This document shows positions 1 through 10,643 of a DNA stretch of 12,069 bases, one piece after another; the first letter of the stretch is position 1; each line of letters opens with the position of its first letter. The position numbers and the translations under genes were made by a program. Under the pieces are notes generated by a model. It was not told where the DNA came from and did no database searches. It was given only the letters and a program-made list of their open reading frames with translations. The DNA is from Candidatus Micrarchaeia archaeon (lineage in GTDB: Archaea; Micrarchaeota; Micrarchaeia; Micrarchaeales; CABMGC01), in NCBI GenBank assembly GCA_049976845.1, contig JBMFHL010000019.1, positions 1 through 12,069 on the forward strand, read 5' to 3'.

Positions 1-1519
1 GGTACATCCCTGTTACTCCGTCTTCATTATTTGTTATTATTGCATCCCCTGTCCTTGGAGAGAACACCTGTTCGTTTACCCACATAAGGTATTTTGCTTC
101 TGCTTGTGCCTCAAGTGTCTGCGGAACATGCAAGTTCATTTCGTCTCCGTCGAAGTCTGCGCCATAAGGGTGAGTGGCGTCGAAATTTACCCTGAAGGTC
201 TTGCCAGGCATAACCCTAGCTCTGTGGGCCATTATTGAAATCCTGTGAAGCGAAGGCTGCCTGTTGAATAGGACAATATCGCCATCCATAAGCTGCCGCT
301 CTAGTATATCCCCTACAGCGATTGACTTTACTGCTTCTTCCCTTGCGGTGTCTACTATGCGGTGCCTTTTGCCATCCCTTGATATTATGCCAATCACTGT
401 TGGATACTCTGATCTTGATACAAGTTCCTTTGCTTTGCTGATATTCCATTCTGTTACATAAAATGGCACTGTAAGCTTCTTTGCTATTTCAATTGGCACG
501 CCAACCTCGTCTATGTCTATATAAGGGTCTACAGAGATTACGGTTCTTGCTGAGAAGTTCACCCTTTTGCCGCTAAGATTATATCTGAACCTTCCTTCTT
601 TACCCTTTAGCCTTTGGGCCAGTGTTTTAAGCGCTCTGCCGCTCCTGTGCCTTGCTGGCGGTATGCCAGGTGCTTCATTGTTGAAATACGTCGTAATATT
701 GTACTGCAGCAGCTCCCAGAGGTCGTCTATTATTATCTGCGGCGCTCCGGCATTTATATTCTGCTCTAGCCTCTGATTTATACGCATGATATCGACAAGC
801 TTGTGTGTAAGATCATCTTCGCTCCTCTCTCCTGATTCGAGCGTTATTGAAGGCCTCACATTTACCGGGGGAACAAGAAGGGATGTTAGTATGAGCCATT
901 CTGGTCTGCTTGTACTTGGATCTATTCCAAGCAGCTTCAAATCATCGTCACTGATTTTGCTCAGTCTTTCCCTTATCTCATCAGGCTTCAGCCTTCTATC
1001 CCCTATGTAGAAGTATGTTGGCGCCTCAAATTTTACCTTTTGCTGTACTGCACCGCAGTGCGGGCATTTCTTTATGCTTCTAAGCTTTTTCATGATCTGG
1101 TTTTTATCATTTACCTTGTCGCTTTCGCTTTCGAATATTTCATCGCTTCCGACTATTACCTCCTTGAGATCTTCGCGAACATCGCTTATCTGCTCTTCGT
1201 TGAGAAGCACCCTTCCGCATTCCTGACACGTAGACTGCAGCAGCATGTAGATTATTTTTGAGAATTCCGAGTGTATAACAGGCCTTATAAGCTCAATGTG
1301 GCCAAAGTGGCCTGGACAGATCTTAGCCCTAGCTCCGCATGTTTTGCAGACAAGCCCAGGGTCTATTACACCTAGCCTCTGATCTAGCAAACCGCCATCT
1401 ATAGGGTAGCCATCCTCGTTGTATGTATCTGGAACTGTAAGCTTGGCTACGCTGAGCCTCTTTATCTGCTCTGGTGAGAGCACACCAAATTTTATATAAT
1501 CTATCAATTCTGCTTGCAT
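1..1519 (-). CDS. rpoA1: DNA-directed RNA polymerase subunit A' (Rpo1N), 3'-truncated by the window edge (about 506 codons visible)
   Basis: Manual translation from ATG at 1519 gives MQAELIDYIKFGVLSPEQIKRLSV, Zn site CKTCG...CPGHFGH, LKGKEGRFRYNLSGKRVNFSARTV, NRQPSLHR and the catalytic loop ADFDGDEMNLHVPQ, which is in frame with the start. SD GGAGTGAT at 1524-1531 overlaps the rpoB' stop. Missing from the ORF track because there is no stop inside the window. Confidence 0.98.
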   Translation of the reverse strand, partial: MQAELIDYIKFGVLSPEQIKRLSVAKLTVPDTYNEDGYPIDGGLLDQRLGVIDPGLVCKTCGARAKICPGHFGHIELIRPVIHSEFSKIIYMLLQSTCQECGRVLLNEEQISDVREDLKEVIVGSDEIFESESDKVNDKNQIMKKLRSIKKCPHCGAVQQKVKFEAPTYFYIGDRRLKPDEIRERLSKISDDDLKLLGIDPSTSRPEWLILTSLLVPPVNVRPSITLESGERSEDDLTHKLVDIMRINQRLEQNINAGAPQIIIDDLWELLQYNITTYFNNEAPGIPPARHRSGRALKTLAQRLKGKEGRFRYNLSGKRVNFSARTVISVDPYIDIDEVGVPIEIAKKLTVPFYVTEWNISKAKELVSRSEYPTVIGIISRDGKRHRIVDTAREEAVKSIAVGDILERQLMDGDIVLFNRQPSLHRISIMAHRARVMPGKTFRVNFDATHPYGADFDGDEMNLHVPQTLEAQAEAKYLMWVNEQVFSPRTGDAIITNNEDGVTGMY

Positions 1520-1524
1520 TAATA

Positions 1525-3354
1525 TCACTCCTTCATCTTTATCTTTGGGAATATGTGCAGAGATTTTATCTCGTCAAGAAGCAACTTGAAGGCATAGCTT
1601 ATTTCCACTTGCTCTAGATTGTTGCTGCCACATATAGGGCATATGTCGATTTTCTTTATATAATCGTGGTAGCCTATATTGCCGCATTCCTTGCATATCA
1701 GCACAGTTGCCTTGTCGCTCTGCTCCAGAAGCCTCTCCTTTAGCAGGAGGCTTGCACCATATCCTACAAGTACATCCCTTTCCATCTCTCCGAATCTCAA
1801 GCCACCCTGCCTCGCTTTTCCTTCAGTTGGCTGATGGGTAAGTATCTGCACTGGACCGCGGCTCCTCACCTGCAATTTATTGCTTACCATGTGGTAGAGC
1901 CTGTTGTAATAGGAAATTCCTATGAATAGCTTAGATTTGAAAGGCTCGCCGGTTATGCCGTCATAAAGTACCTCTTCGCCATATTTTGCAAAGCCATGGC
2001 TTTCTACAATTTTTGAATACTCATTTATTCTGTCACTGCCTTTCTCGGCAAATGGCGTGCCGTCTATCTGCCTGCCATTCATTGCTGCAGCTTTTCCAGC
2101 AAGCTCCTCAAGCAAATGCCCAAAGGTAAGCCTTGAAGGTATACTGTGTGGATTAAGCAACAGATCAGGCACAATGCCGTCTTTTGTAAAAGGCATGTCT
2201 TCTTGAGGCACAAGCATTGCTATTACCCCTTTCTGACCGTGCCTGCTTGCAAATTTGTCTCCTATTTCAGGTATTCTTAAGCTTCTTATCCTCACTTTGA
2301 CGACTTTTGTTGCTCCTGTTGTTTCTGTGAAGACAACACTGTCAACTACACCATGTTCGCCTGCCTTGAGCGATGTTGAATCATCCCTTATCTTTTCTTC
2401 TAGACCTGTGGCACCAATGTTTTCTTCGAGGAATCTTGGAGGTGCGATCTTGCCAATTAATACGTCACCTTCATTTACAGGCATCTCTGGCTCTATTATA
2501 CCGTCGTCGCTCAGCTTTGAATAAGCAGATTCGCCAAGGTAGCCCTCAGCTGTTGCAGGAGGCAACTTGAATGTATCTTTTTGCCCTCCAGGATACCTTC
2601 TCTCTTCATCAGAATATGTTTTGTAAAACATGCTCCTGCCAAGGCCCCTGTCAACGGCAGCCTTGTTTACTACTATTGCGTCGGCCATATTATAGCCGTA
2701 GTATGTTGATAATGCCACTATAAAATTCTGTCCGCTTGGGTGCGTACTTATGTTCGCCATCTTGTATGGCGCCGTAGTTACAAGCGGCACTTGAGGGTAG
2801 AAAAGTATGTATGATCTGGAGTCAAATCTCAAGTTGAAATTTGTTGCATAAAGGCCTTCCCCCTGCTTAATGAAATTGGCGCTCATTGCATGCCTTGCAG
2901 CGCTGTTGTGCTCTTGGTACGGGCTTGAGCCTATTGTAAAACCGAAGATCGAATCTATATCCACTTCCAAGTGGGTTGTATCCTCTTTTATTTCGTTCTC
3001 GTAGAATGCAACAAGTGCATTTTCTTCTTCCTCTGCATCTAGATATTCTATTATGCCATGCCTCAGCAGGTAGTTGAAATCTATCTCTTTCTTCTTTACC
3101 TTTTCCAAGATGTCGCTTGTGAGCTTTGACTTGCCATTTTCTACTATTATATACGGCTTCCTCACCCTCCCTACATCTGAATTGACATGCACTGCATTTA
3201 CATTGCTAACGTATGCTACGTTTATCTCTCCGGAGATTAGCCCATTCCTCCTTGCATTCCTTATCTCTTGTGCTAGCTTCTCCCCGTCTTCAACATAGCC
3301 GATTATTCTGCCGTTGAGGTAAACATGACATTTTTCATCTAGTTTTTTTGCCAA
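1525..3354 (-). CDS. rpoB1: DNA-directed RNA polymerase subunit B' (Rpo2C)
   Basis: 609 aa with GDKFASRHGQKG, NPHSIPSR, GGLRFGEMERD and a C-terminal Zn ribbon CKEC...CPIC. TTG start preceded by SD GTGGTG. Confidence 0.98.
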   Translation of the reverse strand: MAKKLDEKCHVYLNGRIIGYVEDGEKLAQEIRNARRNGLISGEINVAYVSNVNAVHVNSDVGRVRKPYIIVENGKSKLTSDILEKVKKKEIDFNYLLRHGIIEYLDAEEEENALVAFYENEIKEDTTHLEVDIDSIFGFTIGSSPYQEHNSAARHAMSANFIKQGEGLYATNFNLRFDSRSYILFYPQVPLVTTAPYKMANISTHPSGQNFIVALSTYYGYNMADAIVVNKAAVDRGLGRSMFYKTYSDEERRYPGGQKDTFKLPPATAEGYLGESAYSKLSDDGIIEPEMPVNEGDVLIGKIAPPRFLEENIGATGLEEKIRDDSTSLKAGEHGVVDSVVFTETTGATKVVKVRIRSLRIPEIGDKFASRHGQKGVIAMLVPQEDMPFTKDGIVPDLLLNPHSIPSRLTFGHLLEELAGKAAAMNGRQIDGTPFAEKGSDRINEYSKIVESHGFAKYGEEVLYDGITGEPFKSKLFIGISYYNRLYHMVSNKLQVRSRGPVQILTHQPTEGKARQGGLRFGEMERDVLVGYGASLLLKERLLEQSDKATVLICKECGNIGYHDYIKKIDICPICGSNNLEQVEISYAFKLLLDEIKSLHIFPKIKMKE

Positions 3355-3365
3355 GCAAACACCAC

Positions 3366-4838
3366 TTAATCCTCTTTTATGCTCCCTATTTCCTTAAGTT
3401 TCTCTTCTGTAAATTTCTCGTCTGCACCTGTAGTTACCTTTGACATTATTGCAAGGTATTTGGTGAGTCCTACCTCCTGCCCTTCAGGGGATTCTGAGGG
3501 GCAGATCTTACCCCACTGCGTACCATGAACATCCCTTGCCCTAAAGTGTGGGTGCTTCTTCGCAAGAGGCGATTTTATACGCCTGAGATGCGCATACGTG
3601 CTCACCATATTTGTCCTGTCAAGCACTTGGGAAACGCCAGTCTGGCCTGCAACCCATGTGCCAGTTCCCATTGCATAAAGTATTTTTTCTGTAAGCGTGT
3701 CAGGGCTTATTATTGTCTGTATGCTCATCCTTCTGCCCCTTGCGCTTGTTCTTTCTATTTGATATTTGACATCTTTTACGAAGAACTTGAATGCGTATGC
3801 AAAGAGCTCCTCCATCAGCTCGCCAGCAAGCTTTATCCTCTTGTTTGCATAATGGTCTTTGTCGTCTTGCTTCAGGTATTTGTTTGCTACGAGCGATGCC
3901 CTCTTTGTTGCTTCTATTAAGTATTTCGCCTTTGCCTGCCTGTCCTCTAGGGTTATTCCTATGTGAGGCAATAGGTATGTGTCTATCTGCGTTTCGGCTC
4001 TCTTCTTCTGATATTCTTGGGCCTGGCCTGGTGCAGAATTCTTTCCTATTTCAAGCATTGCTTCGGATGGTCCAAGCTCTTTCGCATTGCTTATTTCTAT
4101 GTTATATAGTATATCATTTTTTACAACAGGCATTGATTCTACCGCCTTCAATATTTCTTGCACTGTCATGCCCAAAGCCCTTAAAAGCAGTATCAGATCT
4201 ATGTTCTTCGGGGCAGTAGGGAAGTTTACGTTAAATAAACCTTTTTGGTTCCTTGTGACAGCGCAACGCGCCCTAAAGCCGCTAGAAGTAGAAAATACTT
4301 TGCTTGTTACTTCAGCGCCGCCTTTCTCCTTTGTTGTCATTATTCTGTTTGGCGCAAGATCTTCTAATCCTATTAGCACTCTCTCTGTGCCTTTTATTAT
4401 GAAATAACCTCCAGGATCATTAGGATCCTCTCCGCTCTTGAGGAGTTGGCCCTTTGGCATGTTTCTCATGTGACAGATGTTGCTCCTCAGCATTATCGGA
4501 AGCTCGCCTATAAACACTTCGCCATAAGAAGCCTGCTTTTCTATGCCTCTTATCACTGGCACAAATTCGAGAAATATTGGCGCTGCATAAGTTAGATTCC
4601 TCAATCTTGCCTCATTCGGCATTATGTTCCTTCTTGAGCTGTCAGCCTCTATTATTGAAGGCTTGTCAAGCCTGAGCTTGCCCAGCTTTAGGGAAAAATC
4701 TTCCACATTTGGCTGTATTATACCTTGCTTTGCTATCACGCGCTGGATTCCAAAATCTAGGAAACGGTTGAAGCTTTCTATCTGCTGCTGCACCAGAGAA
4801 ACTGAGCTCAAGTACGATTCAAGTAGTTCATTAGCCAT
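3366..4838 (-). CDS. rpoB2: DNA-directed RNA polymerase subunit B'' (Rpo2N)
   Basis: Motifs EARLRNLTYAAP, DPGGYFIIKGTERV, DDKDHYANKR, TGVSQVLDR and WGKICPSESPEG. ATG at 4838 (MANELL) is preferred over GTG at 4847 because GTGGT at 4843-4847 then serves as its SD. Confidence 0.97.
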   Translation of the reverse strand: MANELLESYLSSVSLVQQQIESFNRFLDFGIQRVIAKQGIIQPNVEDFSLKLGKLRLDKPSIIEADSSRRNIMPNEARLRNLTYAAPIFLEFVPVIRGIEKQASYGEVFIGELPIMLRSNICHMRNMPKGQLLKSGEDPNDPGGYFIIKGTERVLIGLEDLAPNRIMTTKEKGGAEVTSKVFSTSSGFRARCAVTRNQKGLFNVNFPTAPKNIDLILLLRALGMTVQEILKAVESMPVVKNDILYNIEISNAKELGPSEAMLEIGKNSAPGQAQEYQKKRAETQIDTYLLPHIGITLEDRQAKAKYLIEATKRASLVANKYLKQDDKDHYANKRIKLAGELMEELFAYAFKFFVKDVKYQIERTSARGRRMSIQTIISPDTLTEKILYAMGTGTWVAGQTGVSQVLDRTNMVSTYAHLRRIKSPLAKKHPHFRARDVHGTQWGKICPSESPEGQEVGLTKYLAIMSKVTTGADEKFTEEKLKEIGSIKED

Positions 4839-4846
4839 AAAGACCA

Positions 4847-5089
4847 CTAACCTTTTACGACAAGTCTGTAGTATGCATACTTAGTTTTTGACTGGTAAGG
4901 TGGGTCTTCTCTATATATCCTCAATATCTGTCCGGATTTTGCCCCGAGCTTTTTTGCTTGCGGATCACTCTCGAATATCTTCGGCAATTCCTCCTTTGTG
5001 ATCTTCAGGGCTTCTAAAACCTTCTTGGTCTCCGCATCAGTGAGTATCTCATGCACCGGGACTAATAAATGTTCTCTCTTTGCTACCAA
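4847..5089 (-). CDS. rpoH: DNA-directed RNA polymerase subunit H (Rpo5)
   Basis: 80 aa with HLLVPVHEIL, LPKIFESDP and YYRLVV. Sits in the canonical position before rpoB. TTG start with SD AGGTGG 5 nt upstream. Confidence 0.97.
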   Translation of the reverse strand: MVAKREHLLVPVHEILTDAETKKVLEALKITKEELPKIFESDPQAKKLGAKSGQILRIYREDPPYQSKTKYAYYRLVVKG

Positions 5090-5243: not shown

Positions 5244-6014
5244 CTATTGATAATAGGGGAGGTATTTATCGTTGCCTTCATTTAACACGTTCTGCCTCTG
5301 CATGCCTTTAAGTACGTCTTTATCTTTATCTATTTTCTCTGAAGATGCTCTTACTATCTCGCTTATTGAATTTTTCAATGAATTTTTCCTCACTTTTTCG
5401 TTGTATGTATCATCTGGAAGGTATTCACAGGCTTTCTGTATGTAATCGATTGCTTCTGAAACGCTTAGCGAATTTAATGCATTGAGGAATTCCCATTTTA
5501 TCATTGTACTCTTAAGCAGTTTTTCGGCCCCTTTGTCTAGCGACATTGACCAGAGAAACTTTTTTATTATTTTATTCATTTCTTCAAAGTCTGAAACTGC
5601 CATCCATGTGTTCAATATGTTTAAGATGCTTACCTCTGGAGGCTTATTGCCCTCTTGCAGATCTATAGGCATTTCATCATCTTCGTCTATGTTATTAATT
5701 ACTCTGTAATTTATGTTTATATTCTCTATATATTCTGTTACCGCCTCATTTATTGCCTCTAGCATTGCATGCAGTAGCAGTAATTTTGAGAGCGCTTCAT
5801 TATTTGGATCTGTCTTTATGCCTGCTTCGCCAAGTGAATTTATCGCATTTTGCATATCCTTTGGGCTTATTATATACTCAATTTCATCCCTTCTAAGCTC
5901 CGCTTCCTGTACGCCTTTGCCGCTGCATTTAGGATAAGTAAAGTCAGACAGGCTATTTAACGCAGTATCTACTATTTTTTTCAGCTCGCTTATATTGGAT
6001 TTTTTTGCTTCCAT
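5244..6014 (-). CDS. Hypothetical protein (256 aa, charged, likely alpha-helical, no recognised family)
   Basis: Long ORF filling the gap between rpoH and kae1, with K/E/I/N-rich composition. TATA-like GTATAAAT lies about 30 nt upstream of the ATG and no SD is evident, consistent with a leaderless mRNA. Confidence 0.8.
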   Translation of the reverse strand: MEAKKSNISELKKIVDTALNSLSDFTYPKCSGKGVQEAELRRDEIEYIISPKDMQNAINSLGEAGIKTDPNNEALSKLLLLHAMLEAINEAVTEYIENININYRVINNIDEDDEMPIDLQEGNKPPEVSILNILNTWMAVSDFEEMNKIIKKFLWSMSLDKGAEKLLKSTMIKWEFLNALNSLSVSEAIDYIQKACEYLPDDTYNEKVRKNSLKNSISEIVRASSEKIDKDKDVLKGMQRQNVLNEGNDKYLPYYQ

Positions 6015-7915: not shown

Positions 7916-8680
7916 ATGCATAAAGGCATAGCTGCGTATATTGTTATAGGTATTATATTAGTTGTCGTGTTACTTTTTTGGCATTTTGACTTTAGTGTCG
8001 GGCATGCACTTACAACCACTACAAGCTTGAGAACTACCACCACTTTGAATACTACCACAATACCTGTAACCACAGTATTAAACACCACTACGACAAGCAT
8101 ACCTCCTATAGGCAGCTGCATTTCGCCAAACAAAACGGTAAGCTTATTGAACGGCAACTTTTCAACTGGGACCTATGAATATTGGAATACTTCTGGATAT
8201 GGATTTGGCAATTTGCCATTAAACATAACCTGGGCAGATAACAACAACTGCTATTACAACACCACTTGGCTAAATTACAATGGCAATTTCTTTGCTACTA
8301 CTTACCACTGCGGCATAATGGTCCAGACAGGAAACTTGACTTCAATGCCTTTCAAAGTTGTGCTGCCTTATCTGAACTTCAAGATTATATCGCCTTACAA
8401 TAATGAACTTTATATAGAGGTAATGAAGAACGGCAAGCCTGTAATAATAAGTCATTATAACACGTATAATGCGGCGGGGAACATACACGCTACGAGCAAT
8501 TTTGAGAATGCAAGCATTCCGTTGGCAATGTTTATGTGCCAGAACGTTAGCGTAAGGATAGTTGCAGGTGTCGCTGGCAATTTGGTCAATAGGCTGCAGT
8601 ACATAGCAGTAGGGGACTTTTACCAGAGTGTAACTCCTATTTCAACGCCAGGCATAATTGTTAACCAGACGATAATTTGA
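7916..8680 (+). CDS. Membrane-anchored extracellular (glyco)protein with a Thr-rich linker and a beta-rich domain
   Basis: N-terminal hydrophobic segment [18 protein letters not shown], poly-Thr stalk, 11 N-X-S/T sequons and 4 Cys. SD AGGTG at 7906-7910. Confidence 0.85.
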
Positions 8681-8698: not shown

Positions 8699-10150
8699 TT
8701 GATAAAGCTTTATAATACGCTTGGGCGTAAGCTAGATGAATTTAGGAGCATTGCTGACAAAGAGGTTGGCTTATACACATGTGGGCCTACAGTCTACTGG
8801 TATGCGCATATAGGCAACATGCGCACATATGTCCAGGAAGATATTCTCAAGCGCGTGCTTATTCACAATGGATATAACGTAAAGCACGTTATGAACATAA
8901 CCGATGTGGGTCACCTTGTAGGAGATTCGAGCATAGGAGAAGATAAAATAAAGCTTGAGGCTAGGAAAGAGCAAAAAAGCGCGTATGATGTCGCTAATTT
9001 TTACACTGGCGCATTCGTTGAGGATTTAAAGAGGCTTAACATTTTATTGCCTGACATAATGCCAAAAGCAACTGCACATGTCAACGAGATGCTTTCTCTA
9101 ATAAAGAGACTTGATGAGAAGGGGTATCTTTACAAGGTTAATACAGGCATGTATTTTGACACCTCGAAGTTCAAGAATTATGGAGAGCTTACAGGAATGA
9201 GCTTCGAGCAACTGAATAAAAATCTCAAAGCAGGGGCCAGAGTAGAGAGGGCTGCTGGCATAAAGAACATTACAGACTTTGCAGTATGGAGGTTTGGAAA
9301 ATCTGACGAAAAGGAAATGATCTGGGATTCGGAATGGGGTAGAGGGTTTCCAGGATGGCATATAGAATGCAGCGCAATGAGCATGAAGTATCTTGGGGAA
9401 CATTTCGACATACATTGTGGAGGCATAGACCATATACCAATACACCATACAAATGAGATTGCACAGTCTGAAGCAGCAACAGGTAAGAAATTTGTCAATT
9501 ACTGGCTGCACGTCGCCTTCCTCACAGTTGACGGAAAGAAAATGGCGAAATCGCTTGGAAATGTTTACACTGTACAAGATTTGATTGACAAAGGGTATTC
9601 CCCAATAGGGCTTAGGTATTTCCTAATGTCAAGCCACTACAGAAATGATCAAAACTTTACTTTTGAGGCGCTTAAAAACGCAGAAAACACAGTTTATAGC
9701 ATATACTCCTTTTTGGCAAGCCTTGGAGATGCGGGTGATGGGAGTAATAAATTAGAAATGCCTGTAGTCGGAGAATTGGAAAATTATCATAGGAGATTTT
9801 TTGAAGAGCTGGATAATGACCTAAATATGCCTAATGCACTTGCGGTAATGCACTCGCTAATAAGTTTTGAGAACAAAAGGATTGAAAATAAGCTCGTTAG
9901 CAATGAGGAGGCAAAAAAAGTAACTGAGATAATGCTTGATTTTGATTCTGTACTTGGAATGGATTTCAAATCAAACCTTAAAGGCATAGAGCTCCCGAAA
10001 GAAGTAAAGGAGCTTATAGATGAGAGGGAAAAGGCTAGAAAGGAGAGAAATTTTAAGAGAGCTGATGAAATAAGAAAGATTATAGAAGAGAGGTATGGTA
10101 TAACTCTGGAGGACTCAGAAAGAGGGGTTATTGCGAAGAAGAAGGGCTAG
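8699..10150 (+). CDS. cysS: Cysteine--tRNA ligase
   Basis: YTCGPTVY, HIGN, NITDVGH, PGWHIECSAMS, HHTNEIAQ, KMAKSLGN and the anticodon-binding segment ARKERNFKRADEIR. The likely start is TTG at 8699 (MIKLYNTL) with SD GGTGA at 8689-8693. Confidence 0.98.
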   Translation: MIKLYNTLGRKLDEFRSIADKEVGLYTCGPTVYWYAHIGNMRTYVQEDILKRVLIHNGYNVKHVMNITDVGHLVGDSSIGEDKIKLEARKEQKSAYDVANFYTGAFVEDLKRLNILLPDIMPKATAHVNEMLSLIKRLDEKGYLYKVNTGMYFDTSKFKNYGELTGMSFEQLNKNLKAGARVERAAGIKNITDFAVWRFGKSDEKEMIWDSEWGRGFPGWHIECSAMSMKYLGEHFDIHCGGIDHIPIHHTNEIAQSEAATGKKFVNYWLHVAFLTVDGKKMAKSLGNVYTVQDLIDKGYSPIGLRYFLMSSHYRNDQNFTFEALKNAENTVYSIYSFLASLGDAGDGSNKLEMPVVGELENYHRRFFEELDNDLNMPNALAVMHSLISFENKRIENKLVSNEEAKKVTEIMLDFDSVLGMDFKSNLKGIELPKEVKELIDEREKARKERNFKRADEIRKIIEERYGITLEDSERGVIAKKKG

Positions 10151-10643
10151 CTTCGGATTCAGAAGGAGTTTTTGGCTCACTGCTTTCCACTTCTTTTATG
10201 GCATCGTTGCTTGAGTCAATTGTGTCTTTGCTATCTAAAACTTGCCTGCCTCCGCGCTTCTGCTGTTTGCTTGTCCTTGCATTGGCAAAAAGTATGTCTA
10301 CATCCTCGTTTGCACTCGACTCGGTCCAGGATTTTATATAAGAGGCAATGTTGCGGAGGGGCTTAGAATACCTGTCGGTAAGCGAATATGCGTTATTCTC
10401 ATGCTTCAACAATCCTATCGAAACCCCAAAATCTAGGTATCTTTTCCATGTTGCAAGAGGAAGCTCGCTGCCACAATCTTTCAGCCTGAGCTCGCCCTTC
10501 TGCTTTACTGCGACGAGTGCCTTGGCGAATCTATAGGCTTTTGTCTCGTTATCAAAGTATATTTTTGCAACATCTTTGACATTTGGGTTCTTCATTTTTT
10601 CCTTAAGCGGCGCATCTTCAAATTCCCAGTATTTGATTGCCAT
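10128..10643 (-). CDS. Hypothetical protein, possible winged-helix domain with a disordered Ser/acidic tail
   Basis: 171 aa. ATG has an SD-like AGTGAT and an upstream TATA-like element. The segment LRLKD...LATWKRYLDFGVSIGLLKHENNAYSL fits a helix-turn-helix-wing pattern. The 3' end overlaps cysS by 23 bp. Confidence 0.75.
   Translation of the reverse strand: MAIKYWEFEDAPLKEKMKNPNVKDVAKIYFDNETKAYRFAKALVAVKQKGELRLKDCGSELPLATWKRYLDFGVSIGLLKHENNAYSLTDRYSKPLRNIASYIKSWTESSANEDVDILFANARTSKQQKRGGRQVLDSKDTIDSSNDAIKEVESSEPKTPSESEASPSSSQ

Follow-up and report, generated by a model that had tools for sequence, protein, structure and literature searches.

Loss of the metal-B glutamate from the RNA polymerase of most Micrarchaeota

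The Glu-Asp pair of the GYNxED loop, which lies at the second metal ion (Mg-B) of the RNA polymerase (RNAP) active centre, has been called invariant (PMC2605557). In a 12,069-nucleotide stretch of a Candidatus Micrarchaeia archaeon genome (contig JBMFHL010000019.1), referred to here as the window, the rpoB' gene (Rpo2C; 1525–3354, minus strand), which encodes the C-terminal half of the second-largest RNAP subunit, has Ala in place of this Glu. An earlier note on this DNA had paired the Ala with an Asn-to-Gly change in RpoA' and proposed that together they reflect coordinated remodelling of the pocket for the nucleoside triphosphate (NTP) and Mg-B. We find that the Glu is the rule in archaea, that it has been lost in most Micrarchaeota and that it has been lost sporadically elsewhere.

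Residue 224 of RpoB' in the window and across archaea

RpoB' is encoded by an intact open reading frame (ORF) of 609 residues with a TTG start, identified from the ORF and by Pfam, and is the sole RpoB' match in a 731-kb genome (52 contigs, ~90% complete), a metagenome assembly of the Micrarchaeota (DPANN). Rpb2 domains 4–7 are present in order (PF04566, PF04567, PF00562, PF04560), all above the Pfam cut-offs, with domain 6 (PF00562) matched at E = 1.2e-125. The nearest solved relatives are archaeal Rpo2 chains, which share ~50% identity over the whole length (phmmer, E = 1e-212 to 1e-196), and the named homologues are entered as Candidatus Micrarchaeota, Micrarchaeia or Micrarchaeaceae archaeon.

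The metal-B loop reads YYGYNMADAIVVN (residues 218–230; 2665–2703, minus strand, by translation) and stands in the context STYYGYNMADAIVVNKA (translation of 1525–3354, minus strand). The coordinates first proposed for this motif, 2668–2703, cover 12 of its 13 residues, the full motif occupying 2665–2703. Translation of the minus strand bears out Ala at codon 224 (GCC, 2683–2685), which is indeed two changes away from GAA or GAG. The following codon, 225 (GAC, 2680–2682, minus strand), encodes Asp, the retained Mg-B carboxylate that is equivalent to Rpb2 D837 and β D814. The assignment of residue 224 to the Glu position of the pair, that of Rpb2 E836 and β E813, likewise holds, as the phmmer offsets carry A224 to position 836 of yeast Rpb2 (query 126–605 to chain 738–1216) and to position 685 of Thermus β (query 207–430 to chain 668–901), if these stretches are ungapped; these offsets and the shared GYNxED motif, rather than a residue-level alignment, are the basis of the assignment. 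Thermus E685, E. coli E813 and yeast E836 have been equated (PMC3533926). The protein thus has one of the two metal-B acidic residues typical of archaeal Rpo2C, D225, and not the other; because the Glu is missing across most of the phylum, as described below, it does not define membership of the Rpo2C family.

Closely related genomes share the substitution. Of seven species in the genus, six have an Ala codon here (GCC, GCA or GCT) and one has a Ser codon (TCT), while a 96% identical protein from a separate source reads GYNMADA. The use of synonymous Ala codons in sister species indicates that A224 is not a sequencing error. Among the 120 closest database homologues, a set that includes one protein reading GDNMADA (P0077), residue 224 is Ala in 66, Gln in 23, Ser in 14, Lys in 14, and Gly, Asn and Glu in one each.

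The survey was extended to 90 Micrarchaeota genomes with a readable motif, taken from two samples, 31 relatives and 201 genomes drawn phylum-wide. Fifty of these loci came from genome searches and 40 were chosen for families f4–f9, f12–f14, f16, f19 and f23–f25; families f10, f11, f15, f17, f18, f20–f22 and f26 are not among the 40. Residue 224 is Ala in 40 genomes, Gly in 18, Ser in 11, Lys in 9, Gln in 4, and Arg and Leu in one each, with Glu found in only 6 of the 90. One of the 90 loci (L031) is from an unpublished genome, G208, without which Ala stands at 39 of 89 and the other counts are the same; the tallies over 201 genomes (the RpoB' sample and those for PF01096 and the TFS profile, below) include G208 and a second unpublished genome, G044. 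The residues around position 224 are far more uniform: G220 and D225 are present in 90/90 genomes, N222 in 87/90 and Y221 in 86/90, and the D225 equivalent is Asp in 150/150 representatives of archaeal clusters. By contrast, site 224 shows eight residue types and takes 21 parsimony steps; ranked by variability, it stands at the 76th percentile of 598 columns. Thus, the conservation in archaea that the earlier note had assumed for this position breaks down within the Micrarchaeota, where it varies freely.

Scored as Glu or non-Glu, the character takes three steps on a tree of the phylum (neighbour-joining with BLOSUM62 distances in Biopython, with no support values). Five of the six Glu-bearers, from families f6, f8 and f16, form one clade on this tree. 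L047, the sixth (GYNKEDS, codon GAG), branches within a group of relatives that read GYNMQDA (CAG), which suggests a one-base reversion from Gln to Glu.

Outside the phylum the Glu is widespread, and here the earlier note's expectation for typical archaea was borne out. In 150 representatives of clusters formed at 50% identity, the pair is ED in 138, DD in 4, QD in 4, and SD, TD, KD and RD in one each. By their cluster names, the QD clusters comprise a Thermoplasmatales 'I-plasma' clade (78 members) and metagenome-assembled genomes (MAGs) of Thermoplasmata/Euryarchaeota, the KD cluster is an uncultured korarchaeote, and the TD cluster belongs to the Anstonellales, an order within the Micrarchaeota. 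Species genomes were also scanned, yielding 71 loci, and Glu is present in 18/18 of those whose titles name taxa outside the Micrarchaeota: ANME-2, Aenigmatarchaeota, Hydrothermarchaeota (three loci), Methanobacteriota, Methanomicrobiales and relatives, Methanothrix, Desulfurococcales, Thorarchaeota, Altiarchaeales, Thermoprotei, Bathyarchaeia and Archaeoglobaceae. Two loci were left out of the 18, L163 ('Marsarchaeota') and L165 ('Acidoferrum'); their RpoB' proteins are 64% identical to that of the window and group with Micrarchaeota by identity, so their titles are doubted. The cluster of P0128, a Thermoplasmatales clade to which 'I-plasma' of acid mine drainage belongs, reads NYNIQDA and has lost the Glu. 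Thermoplasmatales are known hosts of cultured Micrarchaeota. The two RpoB proteins are only ~48% identical, which argues for parallel loss rather than gene transfer.

The rest of the active centre and the TFS cleavage factor

The remaining catalytic and NTP-binding residues of RpoB' are present (R154, N222, D225, K367, K375, N401, S407 and R408). They include the basic residues equivalent to Rpb2 K979, K987, R1020 and R766, which are found in GDKFASRHGQKG (K367, K375), in PSR (R408) and at R154; K367, K375, R408 and R154 are invariant in alignment A2, and their yeast numbering is by motif spacing and phmmer offsets, not residue-level alignment. RpoA' supplies the two-barrel core, with the DFDGD triad in GADFDGDEMN and the R446/P448 equivalent, NRQP, in FNRQPSLHR. 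In 19 other archaea, 169 RpoB' columns do not vary; the window's protein departs from 16 of these, mostly by conservative changes (R/K, L/I/V), and position 224 is the one least retained in the phylum (6/90).

Other parts of the active centre have diverged in this genome. The bridge helix reads HTIGSRGSEVYKALLTARAGYLYRRVSNALQD and differs at 14 of 32 positions from the solved Thermococcus chain. The trigger loop is QMIIGSFHLAG compared to QMTLRTFHFAG in 36rp_C, such that the Leu and Arg near the catalytic His are replaced by Ile and Gly. The NxSPRN motif, which holds the Rpb2 R766/β R678 equivalent, is NSAARH (RpoB' residues 150–155, in the 2890–2907 region, minus strand). The inspection of bridge helix and trigger loop that the earlier note had recommended for this genome therefore found both diverged.

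To place these changes, bridge helices and trigger loops were compared in 41 Micrarchaeota genomes, 28 outside the window's order and 13 inside it. The 28 outside have a near-canonical bridge helix and trigger loop (QMTMRTFHYAG), and 23 of them are without the Glu; the idea that bridge-helix and trigger-loop divergence tracks the Glu loss was rejected on this basis. Inside the order, 12 of 13 genomes are strongly diverged, the genus of the window being the most extreme, and G019, of family f2, falls in between, its trigger loop being near-canonical. The SPR motif is nested in the same way: deep families read NSSPRI, and the window's order has LAR, AAR or VGR. In that order the two residues before the R766-equivalent Arg vary (LA, AA, VG, IG), and the Arg itself is Lys in five genomes.

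The graded nesting of these changes in phylum, order and genus points to a stepwise sequence of events, in which the Glu would have been lost first, at the level of the phylum, followed by rewriting of the pocket in the order and then, in the genus, by the Asn-to-Gly change in RpoA' together with replacement of the trigger-loop Arg by Gly or Ser. Part of the remodelling once proposed for the NTP/Mg-B pocket stands, as several sites are altered in the genus (the Glu lost, Asn replaced by Gly, the trigger-loop Arg by Gly or Ser and Leu by Ile, 14 bridge-helix changes, and SPR replaced by AAR). The part that does not stand is its coordination, since the changes arose in steps that lie at different depths in the tree.

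The cleavage factor TFS was sought with three profiles. PF01096, the TFIIS zinc ribbon, had no match in this genome, although the same search was positive in four model archaea used as a control. TIGR01384 gave one sub-threshold match, rejected as a TFS because Pfam identifies it as ribosomal protein S27a, encoded beside S24e. A lineage profile, built from seven short Micrarchaeota TFS proteins (84–88 residues) that keep a GDE hairpin, had no match in this genome at E ≤ 1. Thus, a TFS gene with a zinc ribbon and an acidic DE hairpin was not found in this ~90% complete genome, and as the genomes are incomplete metagenome assemblies its absence is not proven. The Micrarchaeota TFS proteins are unusually short, and their GDE hairpin differs from the usual SADE type.

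Across the phylum, PF01096 matches 20 of 201 genomes, 17 of them over the cut-off, and the lineage profile finds a full-length TFS in 11 of 201 (E ≤ 8e-30), all within the window's order. Lys occupies position 224 in three of the genomes with a TFS (G023, G025 and G027). In the Glu-retaining families f6, f8 and f16, PF01096 matches 0/1, 0/2 and 0/3 genomes, and the lineage profile gives one weak partial match in the three f16 genomes (G106, E = 2.9e-5) that contains two stop codons. With TFS-bearers that have no Glu and Glu-retainers that have no PF01096 match, the phylum shows no link between the presence of TFS and that of the Glu, and a coupling of their losses was rejected. As for the TFS dependence that the earlier note had raised, the window's genome yielded no TFS, and the relatives that have one are also without the Glu. 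Separately, two Micrarchaeota proteins of 223 and 232 residues (L092:955–1623, plus strand, G118; L094:928–1623, plus strand, G029) carry DUF6879 (PF21806) at the N terminus, fused to a TFIIS-type zinc ribbon with a GDE hairpin at the C terminus; such fusions may bring a ribbon of the cleavage-factor type into the pore of the polymerase, subject to different control.

A probable four-carboxylate active centre and the alternatives to it

Published mutants separate the roles of the two residues of the pair. E836 is described as the fifth carboxylate, which holds Mg-B through a water-mediated bond and is found in nearly all two-barrel polymerases, while D837 is one of eight invariant residues (PMC2919709). 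In yeast, Rpb2 D837A is lethal, whereas E836A is viable, sensitive to 6-azauracil (6-AU) and slow, with a severe fidelity defect that the authors ascribe to misalignment of Mg-B and the NTP (PMC3533926); rpb2-E836A is also counted among slow-growing mutants (PMC2525842). In E. coli, substitutions of β D814 strongly inhibit RNA cleavage and E813A or E813Q do so less, and Asp814, not Glu813, is well placed to coordinate Mg2+ #2 (bioRxiv 10.1101/2024.06.20.599782). Basal exonuclease activity is approximately twofold lower in E813A/D814A, and D814 forms a salt bridge with R1106 (PMC5856549), the equivalent of which, R408, is present in RpoB'.

The reading that we favour, with a probability of roughly 0.72, is that the window encodes a sole, functional RpoB' whose active centre has four carboxylates following an old and tolerated loss of a dispensable, water-mediated Mg-B ligand. 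On this reading, the fifth carboxylate, the Glu of GYNxED, would have been lost long ago across most of the phylum, after which site 224 would have drifted irrespective of side-chain size and charge (A, G, S, K, Q, R, L), occasionally returning to Glu. Such drift suggests that the side chain at this position has lost its function in these enzymes. Catalysis would proceed by the normal two-metal mechanism with four carboxylates, those of the RpoA' DFDGD triad and RpoB' Asp225, and with the basic NTP-binding residues intact. By extrapolation from the engineered E836A and E813A enzymes, Mg-B and the NTP might be held less precisely, leading to slower and less accurate elongation and to weaker retention of Mg-B. 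Slow-growing, host-dependent cells with genomes of ~0.7 Mb would tolerate this cost.

Several observations weigh against this reading or soften it. The slow, error-prone phenotype that we infer for the Micrarchaeota RNAP is carried over from yeast and E. coli mutants, and undetected changes could offset it. Within the phylum, RpoB' column 95 (Asp to Tyr or His) tracks the Glu loss, a pattern that could stem from compensation or from common descent. The Asp of the bridge-helix DTA motif is absent from all 41 Micrarchaeota genomes, including those that retain the Glu, and the motif reads NTA in most of the 28 genomes outside the window's order. The tree, with no support values, makes the number and direction of events approximate and leaves two options for the Glu-bearing clade, in which the Glu was either retained or regained. 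Finally, the genomes surveyed are metagenome-assembled.

A further-reaching view, to which we give tentative and clearly lesser weight, holds that the sole RNAP has a progressively stripped and rewritten catalytic centre in which the changes are functional, altering Mg2+ and NTP handling, sugar discrimination and proofreading. It would bring together the fifth carboxylate lost in most of the phylum, TFS missing from ~90% of the genomes sampled, the bridge helix, trigger loop and SPR motif rewritten in one order, and, in one genus, the replacement of the NADFDGD Asn and of the trigger-loop Arg by Gly or Ser. If true, the altered-polymerase state may be viable only for an obligate symbiont.

It is less probable still that the function of the Glu has been taken over by another residue, another subunit or a changed ion preference, leaving catalysis and fidelity unimpaired, in which case the variability at 224 would be a matter of true redundancy. 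Such a takeover would fit the recurrence of the loss in unrelated archaea (I-plasma with QD, the korarchaeote with KD, and Thermoplasmata/Euryarchaeota MAGs with QD), which suggests that the loss is readily accommodated; it would also fit the bridge-helix Asp missing from all 41 Micrarchaeota genomes compared and the behaviour of column 95. However, only five RpoB' columns that are conserved among Glu-bearing proteins (163, 299, 353, 510 and 540) change in at least three of five independent Glu-loss representatives from outside the Micrarchaeota, and all five changes are conservative (K/R, L/I/V, T/V, E/D), adding no carboxylate near 224. Moreover, bridge helix, trigger loop and SPR motif have stayed near-canonical in Glu-less families that do not belong to the window's order, and engineered Glu-to-Ala enzymes are viable already without compensation. 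As candidates for a compensating change, RpoB' columns were rejected, as none changes consistently across independent Glu-loss lineages and column 95 is confounded by ancestry.

The earlier note's own explanation, in which the Glu-to-Ala and Asn-to-Gly changes form a co-adapted pair that reshapes the NTP/Mg-B pocket and alters rate, cleavage or TFS dependence, appears doubtful in the light of their distribution. The companion change itself was confirmed. The metal-A context of RpoA' is HPYGADFDGDEMN, in which GADFDGD replaces NADFDGD (143–163, minus strand), with Gly456 encoded by GGC at 161–163. The Asn before the DFDGD triad contacts the NTP ribose in other polymerases. Both motifs are readable in 85 of the 90 loci. 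GADFDGD occurs in nine: all seven genomes of the window's genus (g1), which have Ala or Ser at 224, L026, which has Leu (GYDMLDS), and L047, which has Glu (GYNKEDS). The other 76 have NADFDGD (NSDFDGD in one, L071), and 71 of these are without the Glu at 224. In several Micrarchaeota the metal-A loop reads NADYDGD instead of NADFDGD (L018, L021, L025, L049, L061, L062, L089, L090 and others).

A fourth independent Asn-to-Gly lineage, L163, has Asp at 224 (GYSMDDA). Residue 224 is therefore Ala or Ser, Leu, Glu and Asp in the four lineages, acidic in two, which are too few events to interpret in themselves, and each lineage has closer relatives that retain Asn in NADFDGD. These differing states and Asn-bearing relatives establish that the two changes are independent; with 71 of 85 genomes combining a non-Glu residue with NADFDGD, the co-variation that had been expected between the Glu loss and the RpoA' change does not exist. 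Their timing differs as well, the Glu loss being deep in the phylum and the Asn-to-Gly change at the level of the genus. What the co-adaptation proposal retains is that both changes are found in all seven genomes of the genus, which also alters the NTP-approaching trigger-loop Arg (to Gly or Ser), the Leu (to Ile) and the bridge helix, and that all four Asn-to-Gly lineages lie within the window's order, which was already without the Glu, so that the Glu loss might be a permissive background.

An artefact or a decaying gene, whether by sequencing or assembly error or as a pseudogenised copy, might be suspected in a 52-contig, ~90% complete metagenome assembly and is effectively refuted by the full-length frame with all its Rpb2 domains in a sole copy, the synonymous codons for the same residue in sister species, and the absence of Glu from 119 of the 120 closest homologues, which come from many sources.

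The four-carboxylate reading gives the phylum a particular value. The roles of the two residues of the ED pair have so far been separated only by engineered mutants, and a phylum whose sole polymerase lacks the Glu offers a natural experiment, in which eight residue types at 224 alongside an invariant Asp would indicate that only the Asp is indispensable. The natural variants (A, G, S, K and Q at 224, and the nested bridge-helix, trigger-loop and Asn-to-Gly changes) provide material for testing how second-shell residues influence Mg-B positioning, fidelity and cleavage. The Glu loss, together with a mostly missing TFS, also poses the testable question of whether transcription accuracy is unusually low in reduced symbionts. 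For annotators and motif screens, a missing Glu is no sign of a dead polymerase. Targeted literature searches found no description of the loss of the metal-B Glu in Micrarchaeota or DPANN, subscription-only papers and supplements being outside their coverage. At its broadest, the finding, as read from the sequences, is of an apparently four-carboxylate polymerase across the phylum, mostly with no TFS found, the active centre of which seems to have been rewritten stepwise in the window's order and genus.

Gene context and comparison with known polymerases

The polymerase genes of the window form an operon with the usual archaeal order, rpoH - rpoB'' - rpoB' - rpoA', as established from ORFs and Pfam, an arrangement that is itself characteristic of archaeal Rpo2C. 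All are on the minus strand. The first gene, rpoH (Rpo5; 4847–5089), encodes 80 residues and matches RNA_pol_Rpb5_C (Pfam, E = 1.9e-21). It is followed by rpoB'' (Rpo2N; 3366–4847), which encodes the 493-residue N-terminal half of the split subunit with Pfam Rpb2 domains 1, 2 and 3. Downstream of rpoB', rpoA' (Rpo1N; 2–1528) is truncated at the contig edge after its first 509 residues, which contain Pfam Rpb1 domains 1 and 2; contig C8 of the same genome carries the remainder and rpoA'' (locus L103: 2–1036 and 1033–2088, plus strand). Beyond the operon, the window contains Kae1/TsaD, a Bud32-like kinase and CysRS on the plus strand and a DRG-type GTPase on the minus strand. Three ORFs of 256, 254 and 171 residues (5244–6014, minus; 7916–8680, plus; 10128–10643, minus) are located between the housekeeping genes and have no Pfam match at E ≤ 0.001.

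The enzyme is a natural variant of a very well known polymerase and not a new kind of system. It shares family, domain order and operon with the archaeal Rpo2/B' subunits of T. kodakarensis (4qiw_B), the Pyrococcus type (8cro_B) and Sulfolobus/Saccharolobus (2waq_B, 2pmz_B), as well as all of their other catalytic and NTP-binding residues. It differs from these solved chains in the Ala that replaces the Glu of GYNxED and in the 16 of 169 otherwise invariant columns noted above, the change of SPR to AAR among them.

The closest parallels to the substitution are engineered. Yeast rpb2-E836A and E. coli β E813A and E813Q are changed at the same position, the window's genus has the same replacement of Glu by Ala with the neighbouring Asp kept, and E. 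coli β E813A/D814A is a further engineered metal-B mutant at this site. Those enzymes are laboratory constructs and defective, being slow, error-prone and 6-AU sensitive or having modest cleavage defects, whereas the variant described here is natural, ancient and found in most of a phylum. The parallel in nature is more distant. Neurospora Qde1 and the YonO-like enzymes of phages and bacteria are described as having the DxDxD triad and a single D837-equivalent Asp, with no E836 equivalent (PMC2919709), an arrangement that we infer here too. However, these are distant, single-chain polymerases with no Rpb2 architecture, while the Micrarchaeota enzyme is a split, multisubunit RNAP with full sets of Rpb1 and Rpb2 domains, and the likeness is limited to the missing fifth carboxylate. 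Plant Pol IV and Pol V, by comparison, are cellular multisubunit enzymes that have many substitutions near the catalytic centre, in the bridge helix and in the hybrid-binding region (PMC2605557). They are extra, non-essential paralogues that keep the ED pair, in contrast to the polymerase of the window, which is the only one of its cell and is without the Glu.

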